A stretch of 64,000 bases of DNA, taken from Escherichia coli. GTDB lineage: Bacteria > Pseudomonadota > Gammaproteobacteria > Enterobacterales > Enterobacteriaceae. A program made the position numbers and the translations under genes. Below, in pieces: positions 47,431 through 57,374 of the stretch. The stretch is from assembly GCF_013122565.1 (NCBI RefSeq), contig NZ_CP053258.1; one strand, given 5' to 3'. The notes under the pieces are model-generated. The model was not told where the DNA came from and made no database searches. It saw nothing but the letters and a program-made list of their open reading frames with translations. Position 1 is the stretch's first letter, and each line of letters opens with the position of its first letter.

Positions 47431-47513
47431 GCCTGATGCGACGCTTACGCGTCTTATCATGCCTACGGGAACCTGACCGTAGGCCGGATAAGGCGTACAC
47501 GCCGCATCCGGCA
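47431..47513. repeat. REP/BIME palindromic units after aldB
   Basis: GCCTGATGCGACGCTTACGCGTCTTATCATGCCTAC and GTAGGCCGGATAAGGCGTACACGCCGCATCCGGCA. Confidence 0.7.
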
Positions 47514-49407: not shown

Positions 49408-50378
49408 TCTTCGCTTTCCGCCGCTTGTTCAGGCCGCAGTTGCTGCGACTGAGCAAGCTGGTGGCGAATTTCACGCAGCATTTCATCCAGCACATACTGG
49501 ACCCGCCAGGGCTGGTATTCCCGTTTACGGAAGATAGCCACCAGATCCAGCCACCATTCATACGGGTGCTGAAAGCAGGGCACCAGCGTGCCGTCTTGCA
49601 GGTCGCTCTGCACACTTTTGTCTGGCGCAAACACAATCCCCAGGTGATTTCGTGCCAGCTCCAGCGCAGATTGCGTGTTGTCGCAAACGTAATTTCCCTT
49701 CACGCGATAATCCCGCACATCTTTACTCCCGGCGACGTTGAAGCGCCAGATATTCGCGTCGTCGATCATCATCGAGTCGATCAAAATACAGGAGTGATGT
49801 TCGAGTTCGTCAGGACGGCTAATGGGATGTTTCGCAAGATAGCGCTGGCTGGCATAAGCGGTTACGGCATATTGTGTAATAAAACTGGCAACCAGCGATT
49901 CATCTTTTGGTGGGGCGTAGCTGATTAAAACATCACAATCATCGGGAAATTCGACGCCTTCATAAAAGGCATTACGCTCAAGATTGCAGGTTTTTAGCGA
50001 TAAGGTGATATCACCGATATCTTTAATTTTATCGATAACATGTTTGGATAAATAGGTAATTATGCCGGTTGGGGCGTAGATGGTGACCCGACCACGTTTC
50101 TCATGCTTATAATCTGCAATAAAATTATTAAGCTGCTCGTTTCTGTCCAGCATGTCGTTGATGTACGGTAATAGCGCGGTGCCAAAAGGTGTGAGCATCA
50201 GCTGCCGGGTGGTGCGGTCAAAGACTTTTAAACCCACTTTTGATTCAAAATCAGCAAGATATTTGCTGACGTTGGCCTGTGCGATGCCAAGTACAGTCGC
50301 GGCATGGCTGATATTTTCACTGGCAGCGATTACCGAGATAATTTTTAACTCCCGGTACTTAAGTTGTAATTTTGTCAT
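49404..50378 (-). CDS. yiaU: LysR-family transcriptional regulator
   Basis: 324 aa ORF, N-terminal HTH; convergent with yiaV, divergent from yiaT. Confidence 0.85.
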
Positions 50379-50500
50379 CGCAACAGCCCAATTATATATA
50401 ATTTTATATATTACTATATAAATATGAATCTTGCACCGGAGAAATTGTAAGCATTACTATGCCGACTCTTTTTATCTTATTTTAAAATGGAATACCGGAC

Positions 50501-51241
50501 ATGTTAATTAACCGCAATATTGTGGCGTTATTTGCGTTGCCTTTTATGGCAAGCGCAACTGCTTCTGAATTATCCATTGGTGCTGGTGCGGCTTATAATG
50601 AATCGCCTTATCGCGGTTATAATGAAAATACAAAGGCAATTCCGCTGATTAGTTATGAAGGTGATTCTTTTTATGTTCGTCAGACCACGTTAGGTTTTAT
50701 TCTGTCGCAAAGTGAAAAAAATGAACTTAGCCTGACCGCATCCTGGATGCCGCTGGAATTTGACCCTGCCGATAATGACGATTATGCCATGCAACAGCTT
50801 GATAAGCGTGATAGTACGGCTATGGCGGGGGTTGCCTGGTATCACCACGAGCGTTGGGGAACCGTGAAAGCCTCTGCGGCTGCGGACGTTCTGGATAACA
50901 GCAACGGCTGGGTGGGGGAGCTATCGGTTTTCCACAAAATGCAGATAGGTCACCTGTCGCTGACACCTGCGCTGGGCGTTATCTATTATGACGAGAATTT
51001 CAGTGACTATTACTATGGCATTTCAGAGAGTGAGTCCCGTCGTAGCGGTCTGGCAAGTTATTCCGCGCAGGATGCATGGGTGCCCTATGTCAGCCTGACG
51101 GCAAAATACCCGATAGGAGAGCACGTCGTATTGATGGCGAGCGCCGGATACAGCGAGCTGCCGGAAGAGATTACCGACAGCCCGATGATTGATCGTAATG
51201 AGAGTTTTACCTTTGTCACCGGCGTGAGCTGGCGTTTTTAA
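50501..51241 (+). CDS. yiaT: MipA/OmpV-family outer membrane protein
   Basis: 246 aa ORF with signal peptide and C-terminal aromatic residue (..SWRF). Confidence 0.85.
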   Translation: MLINRNIVALFALPFMASATASELSIGAGAAYNESPYRGYNENTKAIPLISYEGDSFYVRQTTLGFILSQSEKNELSLTASWMPLEFDPADNDDYAMQQLDKRDSTAMAGVAWYHHERWGTVKASAAADVLDNSNGWVGELSVFHKMQIGHLSLTPALGVIYYDENFSDYYYGISESESRRSGLASYSAQDAWVPYVSLTAKYPIGEHVVLMASAGYSELPEEITDSPMIDRNESFTFVTGVSWRF

Positions 51242-51261
51242 TTCACCGATGGATGTCGGTG

Positions 51262-51371
51262 CGGCTGGCCTACGCTCTCGCACCGACTCGTATGCCTGAT
51301 AAGACGTTTTAAGCGTCGCATTAGGCAATGTACTCCCTACGTTGGATGCGGCGCGAGCGCCTTATCCAACC
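51262..51371. repeat. REP-like palindromic units at the yiaT / GH127 junction
   Basis: GCCTGATAAGACGTTTTAAGCGTCGCATTAGGCA and GTTGGATGCGGCGCGAGCGCCTTATCCAAC units; the latter overlaps the GH127 3' end. Confidence 0.6.
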
Positions 51372-53341
51372 TCCGGATGGCGATGCTTTTCCTCATTCAC
51401 CCAGATCCGCATTTCACCTTCACCCCGGTTAGCCCAGCTAAACCACGGGATAAATGTCAGAGTTTGCGGCTGGCGTTTGGCTGGGGCATAGTCGTAATGC
51501 CACAACGGTTGTTGTTCTGGATTGCTCTGTTCATACCGGTAACCCGGTGCCTGGATTAAGATCTTATGGCTGAACAATCCCTTACCTTCAAATGTCGTAA
51601 ATGGCGCATCGGCGGGCAGCCACAGATTATGCAGTGACTCGCCGTTGTCAGCCTGTTCCAGGCAATACACCAGCGGGCCGCGCTGAATCGCCACTTTTCC
51701 GGCGACGTGACGCACCAGCGGGTTACCGTAAACGCGGCGTACCGGCATCGGCAAAGTCAGATTCAGCGTATCGCCCTCCTGCCATTCGCGGGTAATGTGC
51801 AAATACCCTTTACGAATATCCTGCTCGACCTCTTCCCCATTCAATATGATCTGCGGCTGTGTGCACCAGTCCGGCAGACGTAAAGCCAGCGTATGACGTA
51901 CCGGCTGGGGCGATTCAACCGCAATCGTCACCTGCTCCTGCCACGGATAGTTCCCGCTAACCCGCAGGCGCAGCGTGCCATTTTCTACCGGCACTTCCAT
52001 GCTGTTTCCTGCGTATATGTTGATATACAACGCATCTTCACGCGGCGTGTAGAGATAATGACCGATTGAGGTCAGCACGCGGGCGATATTTGGCGGACAA
52101 CAAGCGCAGCCAAACCAACGCTGGCGGATCGGCTTAATGTGATCGTAGATATGGTTGAATTTCAGCGATTTTGGATGTACTTCCAGCGGATTCACATAGA
52201 AGAAATGTTTGCCATCCAGCGCCATGCCGCCGAGCACAGTGTTGTACAGTGCGCGCTCCATCACATCGGCATATTGACTGTCGCCTTCCATTTCCAGCAT
52301 TCGTCGGGCGAACATCATCAGGCCGATGGAAGCACAGCTTTCGGCGTAAACCGTGTCATTCGGCAGATCGTAATCGCTGCTGAACGCTTCGCCGCTACTC
52401 TGTGAGCCAATGCCACCGGTAATATATAACTGACGCTGGGCCATATTGTTCCACAGCCGCAGGCAGTCCTGACGCTTGCTGTCATCGTGACTTAAACGCG
52501 CGAGATGCGCGACGCCGGTCATCAGGTAGACAAAACGTACCGCGTGACCGATGGCGGTTTGCTGTTGCGCAAGGGGCAAATGTGCCTGGCTGTAGGCTTT
52601 GTCTTTCACCATCCACGCCGGGCCGTAGGTGTGCCAGTGCGAGGTCTGCCCGCGCTTTTCATATTCCTGGTCGTAATAGTGCGGTTGCGCACCACGCTGT
52701 TCGACAAAATAGTTCGTCAATGCCAGGTAGCGCGGCTCTTCGGTCACTTCATACAGACGCATCAGTGCCAGTTCAATTTCCGGGTGACCAGGGTAACCGT
52801 GTAACTTACTTTCATCTGGACCAAATACGCTGTCGATATGATCGGCCAGACGGCAAACCACTTCCAGCAAGCGCCGCTTGCCCGTGGCCTGGAAGAAGGC
52901 GACTCCAGCTTCAATCAGATGACCGGCGCAGTAAAGTTCATGACACTCCGCCAGATTGCTCCAGCGTTCTTCGGGCGCTTTTACCGTAAAGTAAGTATTG
53001 AGATAGCCGTCTTCGCACTGGGCGGAGGCGATCAGTTCGATTACCTCGTCGGCGGTTTTTTCCAGTTCGGCGTCCGGCTTCTGGCACAGCGACCAGGCTA
53101 CCGCTTCCAGCCATTTGGCGACGTCGCTGTCCTGAAACACCATCCCGTAAAATTCACCCTCCTGAAGTCCGGCGGCAATGCGAAAGTTTTCAATCGCATG
53201 GCTGGGTTCCGCTTCTGGGATACGATCGTTCAAGGCATCCCACTGATAAGGAATCACCACGTCGCGGACCAGTTGTTGGTACTGACCGAGGAACGGATCG
53301 CTGACCGTCAGTTTATGCAGATCGACTTCCGAAATGTTCAT
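51362..53341 (-). CDS. Glycoside hydrolase family 127 (DUF1680, beta-L-arabinofuranosidase-like)
   Basis: ORF to 53365; probable start MNISEVDL (659 aa) preceded by AAGGAG; conserved ESC and CACCPPN motifs corresponding to GH127 zinc/catalytic cysteines; no signal peptide. Confidence 0.75.
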   Translation of the reverse strand: MNISEVDLHKLTVSDPFLGQYQQLVRDVVIPYQWDALNDRIPEAEPSHAIENFRIAAGLQEGEFYGMVFQDSDVAKWLEAVAWSLCQKPDAELEKTADEVIELIASAQCEDGYLNTYFTVKAPEERWSNLAECHELYCAGHLIEAGVAFFQATGKRRLLEVVCRLADHIDSVFGPDESKLHGYPGHPEIELALMRLYEVTEEPRYLALTNYFVEQRGAQPHYYDQEYEKRGQTSHWHTYGPAWMVKDKAYSQAHLPLAQQQTAIGHAVRFVYLMTGVAHLARLSHDDSKRQDCLRLWNNMAQRQLYITGGIGSQSSGEAFSSDYDLPNDTVYAESCASIGLMMFARRMLEMEGDSQYADVMERALYNTVLGGMALDGKHFFYVNPLEVHPKSLKFNHIYDHIKPIRQRWFGCACCPPNIARVLTSIGHYLYTPREDALYINIYAGNSMEVPVENGTLRLRVSGNYPWQEQVTIAVESPQPVRHTLALRLPDWCTQPQIILNGEEVEQDIRKGYLHITREWQEGDTLNLTLPMPVRRVYGNPLVRHVAGKVAIQRGPLVYCLEQADNGESLHNLWLPADAPFTTFEGKGLFSHKILIQAPGYRYEQSNPEQQPLWHYDYAPAKRQPQTLTFIPWFSWANRGEGEMRIWVNEEKHRHPEVG

Positions 53342-53351
53342 CTTGTGCTCC

Positions 53352-54752
53352 TTAAGGCTGTACATGACGCTGACGCAGGTCGGTAGCTATGCGTGACATC
53401 ATAGGATTATTGAGTTTGCAAAAGCGGATCGCCCCTGCCAGCAGCAGGTGAAATAGCGCAGGCAGTAATGTTTCCATCGCCGCGATCCCGCCAAGCGAAC
53501 TGGCGGTCTGGTTTTCCATGCCTGGCTGGTAGGCGACAAAAATAAACAGCAGGCTGATGATCCCGGCGCTGGAGGCCCAGGCCAGCTTGATGAAAAACAG
53601 ATTGAAGGCGAAGTTCATGCCGGAAGAACGTACGCGGGTTTTCCACTCGCCGTAGTCATCGGCAAAGGCCATCAATGAGAAGTGCAGTGGCAATGTGAAG
53701 CCAAGAATTACGCCATTACCGAGGATCACCGCCAGCCACAGCGTTTGATAAGCCGGGCCGGAGGGCAGGAACCACATCAACACCGCCAGCGCAGCGAGGA
53801 GCAGGTTGGTGTAGTAGTAAATTTTGACGGTATCGAAACGCCGCGTTAACGGGCTGACAATCACCGAGCCGATAATGGAGGCGAAGGTGACCATGGTGAA
53901 GAACAGCGACGTGTAGCCCGTACTGCCTTGTAAGACGTAGGTAATGAAGTACATATACCCACCGCCGCGAATATTAAAGACGTTAATCAGCAGGAAAGAC
54001 ATGACCAGCATCAGCAGCAGTTGGTCGTTGTTCCGCAGCCCGGCAAGATGTTCGCGCAGGGTAAATTTCCCCATTGTGGAGAGCGGCACCCGTTCACGAA
54101 CCCAGAAAAAACAGCACAGGAACATCACCACGGCAATGGCGCACAATACGCCGACGCCCAGTTGATAGCCGCGTGCAGCGTTGCCCTGACCGAAGAGATC
54201 TACCATCCACGGTAAGCCTACCGAAACCAGAAATCCCGCTACGCCGCAGAGAACGAATCGCCAGGACTGGCAGGAGATCACTTCATTGTGGCGGGTGGTC
54301 ATGGTGTTGATCAGCGCGCAGTACGGTACGTTGATGGCGGTATAACCGACTGAAAGGAGCAGGTAAGTACCGAACGCCCAGGCGATTTTTACTCCCATGC
54401 TGGCATCTGGCACGGTGAACGTCAGGATGCCGATAATGCCGATGGGAATGGCAATCCATAGCTGCCACGGACGAAAGCGCCCCCAGCGACTTTGCGTCCG
54501 GTCGGCAATGACGCCCATCACCGGGTCGGAGATGGCATCAAACACGCGCAGTGCAATAAACAGCGTGCCAACCAGCGCCGGAGTTAATCCAAAAACGTCG
54601 GTGTAGAAAAAGGTGAGAAAATTCATGATCAGGCAAGTTATTACGGTGCCGCCTGCGTCACCCAGGCCGTAGCCTATTTTTTCCCGTACAGATAACGCAT
54701 CGTCAATTTTACCTTTAGCGATATCAGCGGTAGTAATCGGTGTAGAGGTCAT
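53352..54752 (-). CDS. GPH-family (MelB-like) glycoside/cation symporter
   Basis: 466 aa ORF, about 12 TM segments; co-oriented directly upstream of the GH127 gene. Confidence 0.75.
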
Positions 54753-54977
54753 AGATATTCCTCGTGAATAGGGAGCAATTTTTAGTTTTATTGCAATGAC
54801 CTGATTAATTCTGCCGTGAACGGGAATATCAACAAGGCGAGAAAAGAGTAAAAAAAGGTGACGATTCCGACCTGTATTTAAAAGTGTGAAATGGATCAGG
54901 TGAAATTAATGTTTTTGATTAATAATCAAAAGGTAATGTGTTTAATCCTTAATAAATAAGCGGGAAATTACATATCA

Positions 54978-55793
54978 ATGCTCGAATTATCCATGACGTT
55001 ACCGATTAAAGTGCAAAATGGTGGATTATTTATTTCCCGTGGCGTAGGGAGGCATCCGGCAAGGCGGCTGGAGTCATGGGAAATTATCTTTGTCGAAAAA
55101 GGTCGATTAACGATTCAGGAAGAAGAACGGATATTTCTGGTCGATGCGGGAGAGAGTTTATTACTCTGGCCGAACCGACAGCATGTTGGGGTGGAGGATT
55201 TTCCCGCCGATCTCAAATTTTACTGGCTGCATTTTGAGGTTAAAGCGCCGGACAACGACCCTCGCTGGCTTACTCATCTTAGCGTGCCGCAACAAACGAA
55301 GGTTGCCGATCCGCAGGCGCTGGTGGCCCTGTTTCGCCAGTTCTTAAGCGAACAGGAAAAGCATCAACGCACTCCGGCGCTGGAGTTTATTGTGCTGCTC
55401 ATTTTGCAGCAGCTCACCCGTGACGCGCGTCTTGATGAACAGGCCGATGGCGCAGGCACCACCCTTGCCTGGAAGGCGCAGAAACTGATTCGCACGCAAT
55501 ATCACCGCCCGCTTTCCACGGCGCTTCTGGCCCGCGAGCTGTACTGCAATGCCGATTATCTTGGGCGTGTCTATCGGCGAGTGTTTCATCTGACGCTTAC
55601 AGAAGCAATCCACCGCCAGCGGGTGCGCGAAGCCGAAAAGCTGTTAATTAGCGAAGCTCGATCGCTCACGGAAGTGGCGGCGTTGTGCGGGTTTAATGAC
55701 GTTGGCTATTTCCGGCAGATTTTTCGCAAGCACACCGGTTTAACGCCAGCAGCGTGGAAGCGGCGTTACAGCAAGGAACATATCAATTCGTAG
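54978..55793 (+). CDS. AraC/XylS-family transcriptional regulator
   Basis: 271 aa ORF; N-terminal cupin-like sensing domain, C-terminal double HTH; divergent from the transporter gene. Confidence 0.8.
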   Translation: MLELSMTLPIKVQNGGLFISRGVGRHPARRLESWEIIFVEKGRLTIQEEERIFLVDAGESLLLWPNRQHVGVEDFPADLKFYWLHFEVKAPDNDPRWLTHLSVPQQTKVADPQALVALFRQFLSEQEKHQRTPALEFIVLLILQQLTRDARLDEQADGAGTTLAWKAQKLIRTQYHRPLSTALLARELYCNADYLGRVYRRVFHLTLTEAIHRQRVREAEKLLISEARSLTEVAALCGFNDVGYFRQIFRKHTGLTPAAWKRRYSKEHINS

Positions 55794-55824
55794 TGCCGGG
55801 GCGATGAAGCCCCGGCGTGAGGGA

Positions 55825-56520
55825 TTACTGCCCGTAATAGGCATTGTCTCCATGCTTACGCAGGTAGTGCTTATCCAGCAGTTCGTTTTGCATGGCAGGG
55901 AGCTGCGGCGCAAGCTGGCGCGAGAACAGGCCCATATAGGCGCACTCTTCCAGCACCACGGCGTTATGCACCGCATCGGCGGCGTTTTTTCCCCAGGCGA
56001 ACGGGCCGTGAGAATGTACCAGTACCGCAGGGATTTGTGCCGGGTTCAGCCCACGCTCTTCGAAGGTTTCAATGATCACTTCGCCGGTCTGGTATTCATA
56101 CTCGCCGTTGATCTCCTCTGCGGTCATCAGGCGCGTGCAGGGGATGGCACCATAGAAATAATCGGCGTGCGTGGTGCCCCAGGCGGGGAGATCCAGCCCG
56201 GCCTGCGACCAGATGGTAGCGTGGCGCGAGTGGGTATGCACAATGCCACCGATTTCGGCATAGCGACGGTAAAGTGCCAGATGCGTTGGCGTATCGGAAG
56301 AGGGCTTTTTGCTACCTTCCACCACCTTGCCGCTGGCTAACTCAACCACCACCATATCGTCGGCGGTCATCACGTCATACTCGACACCGGAAGGTTTAAT
56401 CACCATCCATTGCCGCGTTTCGTCTACCGCGCTGACATTGCCCCAGGTAAACGTCACCAGATGTTGAGCGGGAAGCGCCAGGTTAGCCGCCAGCACGTCG
56501 TTTTTCAGTTGCTCTAACAT
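55825..56520 (-). CDS. sgbE: L-ribulose-5-phosphate 4-epimerase
   Basis: 231 aa class II aldolase-family ORF recognised as SgbE. Confidence 0.9.
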
Positions 56521-57374
56521 ATAAAACCTGCCTCCTGCATACGCGCTTCAATCCAGCGCCGCGCCTGAATGATCTCCAGCACCGGCTCTTTGGCTTTTTC
56601 GGTCCACATCTCAATCAGGAAAGAACCGCGATAGTTCAGTTCATGCAGCGTTTTGAAGATGCCAACGAAATCGACGCAGCCTTCGCCAAACGGCACATCA
56701 CGGAACTGTCCGGGGCTTTGTTCGGTCACTGGCTGGGTGTCTTTCAGGTGGATCGCGGCGATACGGTCAATGCCCAGTTTCAGTTCGGCGGGAACATCAT
56801 TGCCCCAGGCGCTGAGGTTGCCGACGTCCGGGTAGACGGTGAACCACGGCGAGGCGAGCATCTCGTCCCACTTTTTCCATTTACTGATGGAGTTCATAAA
56901 CGCGGTATCCATAATCTCCACCGCCAGCATTACTTGTGATGCCGCCGCCTGTTCGACCGCCCACGCCAGCCCTTCAGCAAAACGTTGTTGGGTGCCTTCG
57001 TCGTGGTCTTCGTAATAGACGTCATAACCTGCCAGTTGAATGGTGCGAATGCCGAGATCGCGCGCCAGGCGAATTGCTTTACTCATGATCTCCCGCGCCC
57101 GTTCGCGCACCGCTTCGTCCCGGCTGCCAAAAGGAAAACGACGGTGGGCAGACAGGCACATTGACGGAATGGCAACACCCGTTTCGATCATCGCAGTGAC
57201 CAGCGAAGCACGTTGTGCGGCGCTCCAGTCAAGACGTGAGAGCCGTTCGTCGGTTTCATCCACCGACATTTCGACAAAATCAAAGCCACAGCTTTTTGCC
57301 AGCACCAGCCGCTCCGGCCAGGAGAGATCTTTCGCCAGCGCTTTTTCATAAATCCCTAACGGATGATTACGCAC
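56514..57374 (-). CDS. sgbU: L-xylulose-5-phosphate 3-epimerase
   Basis: ORF to 57464; probable GTG start ([14 protein letters not shown], 286 aa) preceded by GGAGG. Confidence 0.88.

Follow-up and report, generated by a model that had tools for sequence, protein, structure and literature searches.

Two systems built around enzymes of glycoside hydrolase family 127 (GH127) have been described that resemble the locus reported here. In Bifidobacterium longum, as set out in PMC7263609, the secreted enzyme HypBA2 frees Araf-beta1,2-Araf (Araf, arabinofuranose) from extensin-type glycoproteins; an importer then takes it up, and the intracellular GH127 enzyme HypBA1 converts it to two molecules of L-arabinose. 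We compared these systems to a three-gene module in 64,000 nucleotides of Escherichia coli DNA (RefSeq assembly GCF_013122565.1, contig NZ_CP053258.1; this whole stretch is called the window). The module lies between yiaT and sgbE and encodes a GH127 hydrolase, a GPH-family symporter, and a divergently transcribed AraC-type regulator. It would follow the same logic as the HypBA1 system, that is, import followed by intracellular cleavage by a GH127 enzyme, and its hydrolase shares all of the catalytic and zinc-binding residues of HypBA1. In contrast, B. longum has an ATP-binding cassette (ABC) importer and secreted GH121 and GH43 enzymes (PMC7263609), whereas the E. coli locus has neither.

The second system contains Ara127N from Geobacillus stearothermophilus T6 (structures 4QJY and 4QK0). 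Ara127N is like the window hydrolase in its three domains and in its C-A-C-C-P-P-N and E-x-C motifs. Unlike the window hydrolase, it is the enzyme of a Gram-positive thermophile; the partners of the window hydrolase are a single GPH symporter and an AraC-type regulator. In the 2014 work of Lansky et al., the Ara127N gene is reported to belong to a large cluster for arabinan utilisation with ABC transporters.

The general design of the module is familiar from E. coli K-12, which has four pairs of a GPH symporter and a cytoplasmic glycosidase: melAB, uidAB, yicJI and yagGH. In these pairs, as in the module, the genes for a GPH symporter and a cytoplasmic glycoside hydrolase are co-transcribed. 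The hydrolases of the K-12 pairs belong to GH4, GH2, GH31 and GH43, whereas that of the module belongs to GH127 and has a cysteine nucleophile. K-12 also has ysaC and ysaD at the same locus as the module, but these are decayed fragments. According to a 2021 preprint (bioRxiv 10.1101/2021.10.19.464957), GH127 is a non-core CAZy family with a prevalence that varies among clades of E. coli, and a 2024 study (PMC11879602) reports that GH127 co-segregates with epithelial invasion, a result interpreted there through HypBA1. All three genes already have correct names in thousands of RefSeq genomes, and the MG1655 annotation includes the remnants. In this respect the finding is ordinary: the operon design is familiar, and its enzyme is an annotated but uncharacterised ortholog of one already known. 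We think it probable that the module is a three-gene operon of the Enterobacteriaceae for small beta-L-arabinofuranosides, inherited vertically and deleted in K-12.

Hydrolase, symporter and regulator

The region between the stop codons of yiaT (51241) and sgbE (55825) contains three open reading frames (ORFs) in the list made for the window, of 659 amino acids (aa) and 466 aa on the minus strand and 271 aa on the plus strand. A preliminary description of this DNA had identified the products as a hydrolase, a symporter and a divergent AraC regulator, with REP-like (repetitive extragenic palindromic) units on the yiaT side; every checkable detail of that account was found in place.

The 659-aa protein has the full three-domain architecture of GH127, an (alpha/alpha)6 catalytic domain followed by two beta domains: PF07944 (E = 2.9e-112, residues 12-427), PF20736 (residues 438-532) and PF20737 (residues 534-649). 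We placed its start at the ATG at 53341. An alternative in-frame ATG upstream would give a protein of 667 aa, and RefSeq picks the start equivalent to 53341 in other strains. The best match among solved structures was the GH127 beta-L-arabinofuranosidase of G. stearothermophilus (4QJY; E = 8.5e-234, residues 11-650), with ~55% identity (343 of 628 aligned positions). HypBA1 from B. longum (3WKW; E = 5.9e-152) was more distant, with a score of 511 bits compared to 781 bits for 4QJY. Residues E322, E338, C340, C417 and C418 of HypBA1 aligned with E318, E334, C336, C414 and C415 of the window hydrolase, and H142, H194 and H270 of HypBA1 were likewise matched. By analogy with HypBA1, we take E318 to be the acid/base, E334, C336, C414 and C415 to be the zinc ligands, and C414 to be the predicted nucleophile. 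The three histidines of HypBA1 are sugar-binding residues of the -1 site. The Pfam domains and the alignment to HypBA1 thus agree with the earlier assignment of this protein as a GH127/DUF1680 hydrolase with intact cysteine and zinc motifs. All of the catalytic and zinc residues are kept and, judged by the E-value of the match to 4QJY, the similarity to GH127 is not a chance pattern. No signal peptide was found at the N-terminus of the hydrolase (MNISEVDLHKLTVSDPF...), and the protein is therefore expected to be cytoplasmic. From its homology to two characterised beta-L-arabinofuranosidases (EC 3.2.1.185), we predict that it is a cytoplasmic enzyme with this activity.

The 466-aa protein passes the model for GPH:cation symporters (TIGR00792; TC 2.A.2), scoring 331 bits against a cut-off of 231 bits over residues 25-462, and it aligns with the structures of MelB over residues 20-461. 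At the positions of the MelB site, D55, D59 and T121 are kept, N58 is replaced by S, and D124 is replaced by N. The best NCBIfam subfamily matches were to YagG, the PRK11462 GPH transporter, MelB, and the glucuronide transporter. The symporter was under the cut-off of each of these specific models (354 of 610 bits for YagG, 323 of 836 for PRK11462, 205 of 456 for MelB and 191 of 528 for the glucuronide transporter), which places it in a separate orthologous group. The TAA stop codon of the symporter gene is inside the sequence TAAGGAG, 7 nt ahead of the ATG of the hydrolase gene (sequence context TAAGGAGCACAAGATG). That is, the symporter gene ends inside the Shine-Dalgarno sequence of the hydrolase gene, and on this basis we regard the two genes as translationally coupled. 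The sequence thereby bears out the claim that a MelB-type symporter gene has its stop in the ribosome-binding site of the hydrolase.

The 271-aa regulator contains an AraC_binding domain (cupin; E = 2.7e-9, residues 26-132) and an HTH_18 domain (E = 4e-19, residues 184-263), in agreement with its initial description as a divergent AraC-type protein. Its best NCBIfam match was to AraC proper (equivalog model NF007860), yet the score was 61 bits compared to a cut-off of 208. Among solved structures of the AraC family, matches were limited to the DNA-binding domain, and none was a relative of the N-terminal ligand-binding domain.

We looked for conserved DNA between the divergent genes by aligning 68 AraC-GPH intergenic regions from ~25 genera. 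Three near-invariant elements on the symporter strand stood out from a poorly conserved background: a CRP-like site, a block of ~45 bp that is a candidate site for the regulator, and a GCAGAAT element (Table 1). A promoter scan of the control region found no strong match to sigma-70, and this fits an activator-dependent promoter. If CAGAAT is the -10 element, then the presumed start would be near 54801 on the minus strand, with the CRP-like site ~91 bp upstream of it. Judged from this spacing, the AraC-type protein bound at about -36 to -75 and CRP centred at about -91.5 would activate the TTGTTG-16-CAGAAT promoter, a layout like those of the araBAD and rhaBAD promoters. The operator-like block (54829-54874) has an internal direct repeat at 21-bp spacing that matches at ~9 of 21 positions, too weak to claim.

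Remnants of the module in K-12 and the distribution of the intact form

The preliminary description had stated that yiaT adjoins sgbE in K-12 and had treated the module as inserted between them. The stop codons of yiaT and sgbE are 4,583 bp apart in the window compared to 346 bp in K-12. MG1655 (NC_000913.3) annotates the pseudogenes ysaD (b4649) and ysaC (b4648) in this interval, and the two genes can be called adjacent only if these pseudogenes are ignored. In a K-12 genome annotated by PGAP (the Prokaryotic Genome Annotation Pipeline), two pseudogene fragments separate yiaT from sgbE: one is internal to a 'hypothetical protein', and the other is the C-terminal end of an AraC-family regulator. 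One entry of a strain table in PMC12361893 is an insertion between these two pseudogenes, and the gene order given there is yiaS-ysaC...ysaD-yiaT. Alignment to the window identified ysaD as part of the 3' region of the GH127 gene and ysaC as the end of the AraC gene. The module is indeed absent from K-12, where the comparison with MG1655/K-12 revealed only these remnants. Since K-12 has fragments of both end genes, its locus is a deletion scar and not an empty site.

The total loss from K-12 in this interval is ~4.2 kb, in two parts (Table 1). The left breakpoint, GGCTGG (51263-51268), is inside the loop of the 9-bp inverted repeat 3' of yiaT. Of the 63 codons of the ysaD remnant, 7 are changed, and its rate of nonsynonymous substitution (dN) is ~10-fold that of intact GH127 alleles, as expected of a decaying fragment. 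The ysaD remnant (K-12 locus L001, 4265-4454) was ~89% identical to every intact E. coli allele compared, and the intact alleles were 94-99.5% identical to each other. This divergence indicates that the deletion allele looks old relative to the diversification of E. coli, yet it is common to ~2,470 genomes.

We searched for relatives of the module using one genome per species, with GH127 relatives at 70-97% aa identity. Close relatives of the GH127 gene were found at ~80 loci. The AraC, GPH and GH127 genes were together at 69 of these, with the divergent and co-directional arrangement kept. The three-gene unit spans ~25 genera regardless of the flanking genes, including Escherichia, Citrobacter, Klebsiella, Raoultella, Enterobacter, Lelliottia, Kluyvera, Kosakonia, Phytobacter, Salmonella diarizonae, Pantoea, Mixta, Buttiauxella and Mangrovibacter. 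This recurrence, whatever the flanks, upholds the proposal that the genes make up a self-contained unit for import, cleavage and regulation. Its place is precisely the sgbE-yiaT interval in Citrobacter, Enterobacter, Lelliottia, Pseudocitrobacter and Huaxiibacter, and it is elsewhere in Pantoea, Buttiauxella, Mangrovibacter and others. Where it is elsewhere, we found no consistent neighbour among nearby genes that would be an arabinose-related partner. The order sgbE-AraC-GPH-GH127-yiaT is common to other genera, and so the module predates E. coli.

Within E. coli, the module (counted as present if at least 80% of its length was found) was in 2,313 of 5,426 complete genomes. The scar of ~290 bp was the only match in ~2,470, and 641 had no match. 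The locus has at least four states in E. coli. The full module, with all genes annotated as intact, is in the window, in PapM-32-1, and in E. coli B C2566. The ysaC/ysaD scar is in K-12, O104:H4 and O103:H2. O157:H7 has kept the module and lost the entire block from sgbE to yiaJ; in O157:H7 PNUSAE145590 (locus L003, 11797-11937), all that remains beside ysaA is the C-terminal part of the IclR-family repressor (yiaJ/plaR). Lastly, in NC101 (locus L084, 5415-7695) aldB is joined to sgbE, a larger deletion in which yiaW, yiaV, yiaU, yiaT and the module were lost. The yiaT-sgbE region is a deletion hot spot from which the module and the sgb operon have been lost independently.

The genes that remain are under selection. 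The ratio of nonsynonymous to synonymous substitution rates (dN/dS) was 0.02-0.12 across all three genes (0.04-0.05 for the hydrolase and 0.02-0.12 for the symporter), indicating strong purifying selection. Compared to one E. coli strain, the synonymous rate (dS) was 0.11 for the GH127 gene and 0.14 for sgbE. Compared to Citrobacter, it was ~1.2 for both the GPH gene and sgbE. These similar values indicate that divergence of the module tracks that of its flanks.

Could the module be an islet that some lineages of E. coli acquired horizontally between yiaT and sgbE, with REP units at the junction? Its patchy presence in E. coli and the REP units at one end would fit such an origin, and the GH127 gene of Bradyrhizobium, 72% identical, is taken on this side as a sign that the hydrolase gene can cross phyla. 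However, internal pieces of both end genes persist in genomes that lack the module, other genera have the module at the identical position, and its synonymous divergence equals that of the flanks. The G+C content of the module (0.54-0.55) is normal, the same as that of the flanking genes. We found no tRNA and no Rfam match in the window, no integrase or other mobility gene among its ORFs, and no direct repeats flanking the module as marks of insertion; the sole short repeat, GGCTGG, is the junction of the deletion in K-12. The REP units were themselves lost with that deletion. We therefore give an acquired islet hardly any credence, and the word 'inserted' in the preliminary description does not hold. 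The module is ancestral at the yiaT-sgbE position, has been inherited vertically and maintained by selection, and K-12 has the derived state.

The REP-like units reported at the yiaT-proximal junction are present, and two were found, by the core pattern and by resemblance. The core, GGATGCGGCG-N4-CGCCTTATCC, is at 51344-51367 and occurs in 3 copies in the window, compared to 0 expected by chance. The second unit overlaps the stop and final codons of the GH127 gene, and the first is similar to a unit at 47431-47462. Another REP pair (a bacterial interspersed mosaic element, BIME), with cores identical to those of the GH127-side pair, is directly downstream of aldB (47431-47509).

Other observations concern the wider setting of the module. 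The yiaT gene in the window is 98-99% identical (aa) to yiaT at other E. coli loci. The closest complete E. coli genomes were 96.2-96.6% identical over 24 kb of the window (20000-44000; 89% coverage). Around the module (50000-57500), the closest was 97.7% identical over 7.5 kb, with dS to E. coli strains of ~0.1. None of these complete genomes is a near-identical match, and the window probably derives from a divergent Escherichia lineage on the margin of E. coli or from a genome outside the collection compared. In Pantoea stewartii (locus L028, 5590-6990) the symporter gene is split into ORFs of 203 and 259 aa and the hydrolase and regulator ORFs are full-length; judged from the split reading frame, this symporter gene is probably a pseudogene. 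Enterobacteriaceae bacterium MGYG-HGUT-00110 has the standard module (locus L031) and a second GPH-GH127 pair, ~70% identical, beside a gene for a LacI-family regulator (locus L082, 4219-8956). Several Bradyrhizobium species (loci L074-L080 and L083; for example, L076, 4701-8953) have a GH127 gene with neither a GPH nor an AraC gene as its partner. The product is 70-72% identical to the enterobacterial enzyme, a striking similarity between different classes of Proteobacteria that suggests gene transfer. In two of these loci (L076 and L080), the GH127 gene is 3' of a 698-aa ORF that resembles serine peptidases and weakly matches oligopeptidase B (88 bits). Such a neighbour hints at, and would fit, glycopeptide substrates.

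Table 1. Positions of the module, its flanking genes, control elements, repeats and K-12 deletions in the window
Feature	Position	Strand	Evidence
yiaT, MipA/OmpV family outer-membrane protein; left flank, outside module	50501-51241	+	ORF and RefSeq names
Perfect 9-bp inverted repeat GTCGGTGCG / CGCACCGAC, directly 3' of yiaT stop	51255-51287		Inverted-repeat scan
Second gap in K-12, 210 bp, bounded by GGCTGG repeat	51269-51478		Alignment
Two REP-like palindromic units, BIME-like pair	51293-51377 (51293-51325; 51334-51377)		Pattern count, inverted repeat
GH127 glycoside hydrolase, 659 aa	51362-53341	-	Pfam, PDB matches, motif positions
ysaD (b4649) remnant, 190 bp of GH127 3' region	51479-51668	-	blastn K-12 vs window, 89.5% identity
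Main deletion, 4,021 bp gone from K-12 and ~2,470 other complete E. coli genomes	51669-55689		blastn, genome scan
GPH-family (MelB/YagG-like) glycoside:cation symporter, 466 aa	53352-54752	-	TIGR00792, MelB alignment
Divergent control region of regulator and symporter	54753-54977		Phylogenetic footprint
GCAGAAT element	54808-54814	-	Footprint
Candidate weak promoter, -35 TTGTTG, 16-bp spacer, -10 CAGAAT	-35, 54830-54835; -10, 54808-54813	-	Footprint and spacing
~45-bp near-invariant block CAGGTCGGAATCGTCACC-T7-ACTC...GCCTTGTTG, candidate regulator site	54829-54874	-	Footprint
CRP-like site, consensus GATC-N5-TCACAC, here CCTGA-N6-TCACA	54885-54900	-	Footprint
AraC/XylS-family regulator, 271 aa	54978-55793	+	AraC_binding and HTH_18
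ysaC (b4648) remnant, last 104 bp of AraC gene	55690-55793	+	blastn K-12 vs window
G+C-rich hairpin GCCGGGGC-N6-GCCCCGGC between convergent AraC gene and sgbE	55795-55816		Inverted-repeat scan
sgbE, L-ribulose-5-phosphate 4-epimerase; right flank, last gene of yiaK-sgbE operon, outside module	55825-56520	-	ORF and annotation

A proposed role in uptake and cleavage of beta-L-arabinofuranosides

Our model builds on what was observed directly: the genes present and the families to which they belong, the conserved catalytic residues, the polarity of the deletion, the distribution, purifying selection and the conserved upstream blocks. From these we infer a substrate, an inducer, a direction of transport and coupling ion, and roles for the conserved DNA blocks. 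The GPH symporter would import a small glycoside, most likely Araf-beta1,2-Araf or a similar beta-L-arabinofuranoside, that other organisms had freed from plant hydroxyproline-rich glycoproteins or pectic glycans. The cytoplasmic GH127 enzyme would then split it, using the zinc-held nucleophile C414 and the acid/base E318, and the L-arabinose produced would enter the ordinary araBAD pathway. The AraC-type protein, together with CRP, would turn on the weak symporter promoter when inducer is present, placing expression under the local regulator and catabolite repression. An old deletion, leaving ysaD and ysaC, removed the unit from K-12 and from nearly half of sequenced E. coli.

Several points weigh against this model. 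GH127 is not mono-specific and includes an aceric-acid hydrolase (NF049879), and PMC5698469 treats GH127 at length in a pathway of carrageenan catabolism. The nearest characterised enzyme is ~55% identical, a level that does not reveal the preference for aglycone and linkage. We found no obvious secreted enzyme encoded at the enterobacterial loci that would make the substrate; consequently the model needs cross-feeding or a substrate that is present in plant material. Among solved structures we found no close relative of the regulator's ligand-binding domain that would point to an inducer. The promoter, CRP site and operator are candidates, assigned from conservation and spacing. In addition, in the literature collection that we searched we found no enzyme, transport or growth data on any enterobacterial member, and no biochemical or genetic study of the operon, as had been supposed when its substrate in E. 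coli was first called uncharacterised. A search of this collection for expression data on the O157 genes gave nothing relevant, and yiaT and sgbE were named together in a genome announcement alone.

Since GH127 enzymes are known with different specificities, most of the remaining doubt concerns which compound is the exact substrate. It is possible, although we consider it unlikely, that the same architecture serves a different compound, imported by the symporter: another furanoside, a linkage of the aceric-acid or anhydro-sugar type, or a glycoside of a plant secondary metabolite. The range of the family, including its place in carrageenan catabolism, and the modest identity to the nearest characterised enzyme would allow for this. 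So would the failure of the symporter to reach any equivalog or subfamily cut-off, and the sole NCBIfam match of the hydrolase is in fact to 'aceric acid hydrolase'. However, the score in that equivalog model was 457 bits compared to a cut-off of 950, with the best stretch mainly in residues 252-649. Furthermore, both of the solved relatives that match best, by a wide margin, have beta-L-arabinofuranosidase activity, and the catalytic residues and the counterparts of H142, H194 and H270 of HypBA1 are all kept. These comparisons favour a beta-L-arabinofuranoside as the substrate.

Relation to the sgb operon and implications

Because sgbE encodes an L-ribulose-5-phosphate 4-epimerase, a link between the module and L-pentose metabolism had been raised at the outset. 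In its full form, this proposal has the module cooperate with the yiaK-sgbE operon, with the released sugar going through LyxK, SgbH, SgbU and SgbE instead of, or beside, AraBAD. SgbE is annotated as a paralog of AraD, and the module and the sgb operon both plausibly handle plant-derived compounds. Moreover, sgbE adjoins the AraC gene in 25 of the 69 module-bearing species representatives, including Citrobacter, Klebsiella, Raoultella, Enterobacter, Phytobacter, Kosakonia and Salmonella diarizonae. The adjacency is widespread, but the two units are convergent, have their own regulators, and are separated by a hairpin (55795-55816) that is kept unchanged in K-12 and is likely a two-way terminator insulating the module from the sgb operon. 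Each has also been lost without the other. O157:H7 has the module without the sgb-yia operon, and K-12 and NC101 have sgbE without the module. In Escherichia whittamii (locus L004, 3657-5364), which has the module, the AraC gene comes immediately after sgbU, and sgbE is absent. In this species, yiaT, yiaU, yiaV and yiaW were not found within 7 kb downstream of the GH127 gene. In addition, the module is in unrelated contexts in many genera. Simple vertical synteny is enough to account for the adjacency. The link is thus weak, and we consider cooperation between the two units improbable.

A broader version is that the module and yiaK-sgbE form one supra-locus for plant-derived sugars, in which this clade of GH127 enzymes frees not arabinose but another L-pentose, or an L-sugar acid, for LyxK, SgbH, SgbU and SgbE. 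We consider this very unlikely. If it were true, the supra-locus would provide a natural source of glycosides for the poorly understood sgb branch, a new specificity for GH127, and the first transporter for it.

Our results correct a bias that comes from the reference genome. K-12 is derived, and ~43% of complete E. coli genomes have kept an intact and selectively maintained operon, among them those of O157:H7 and of the B/BL21 lineage used in laboratories. Hosts for protein expression that descend from E. coli B have a GH127 gene of their own, and this is a possible source of background activity when beta-L-arabinofuranosidases are expressed in them. If the predicted substrate is right, then primary degraders that attack plant extensins or pectins in the gut or on produce could release beta-L-arabinofuranosides for many E. 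coli to scavenge.

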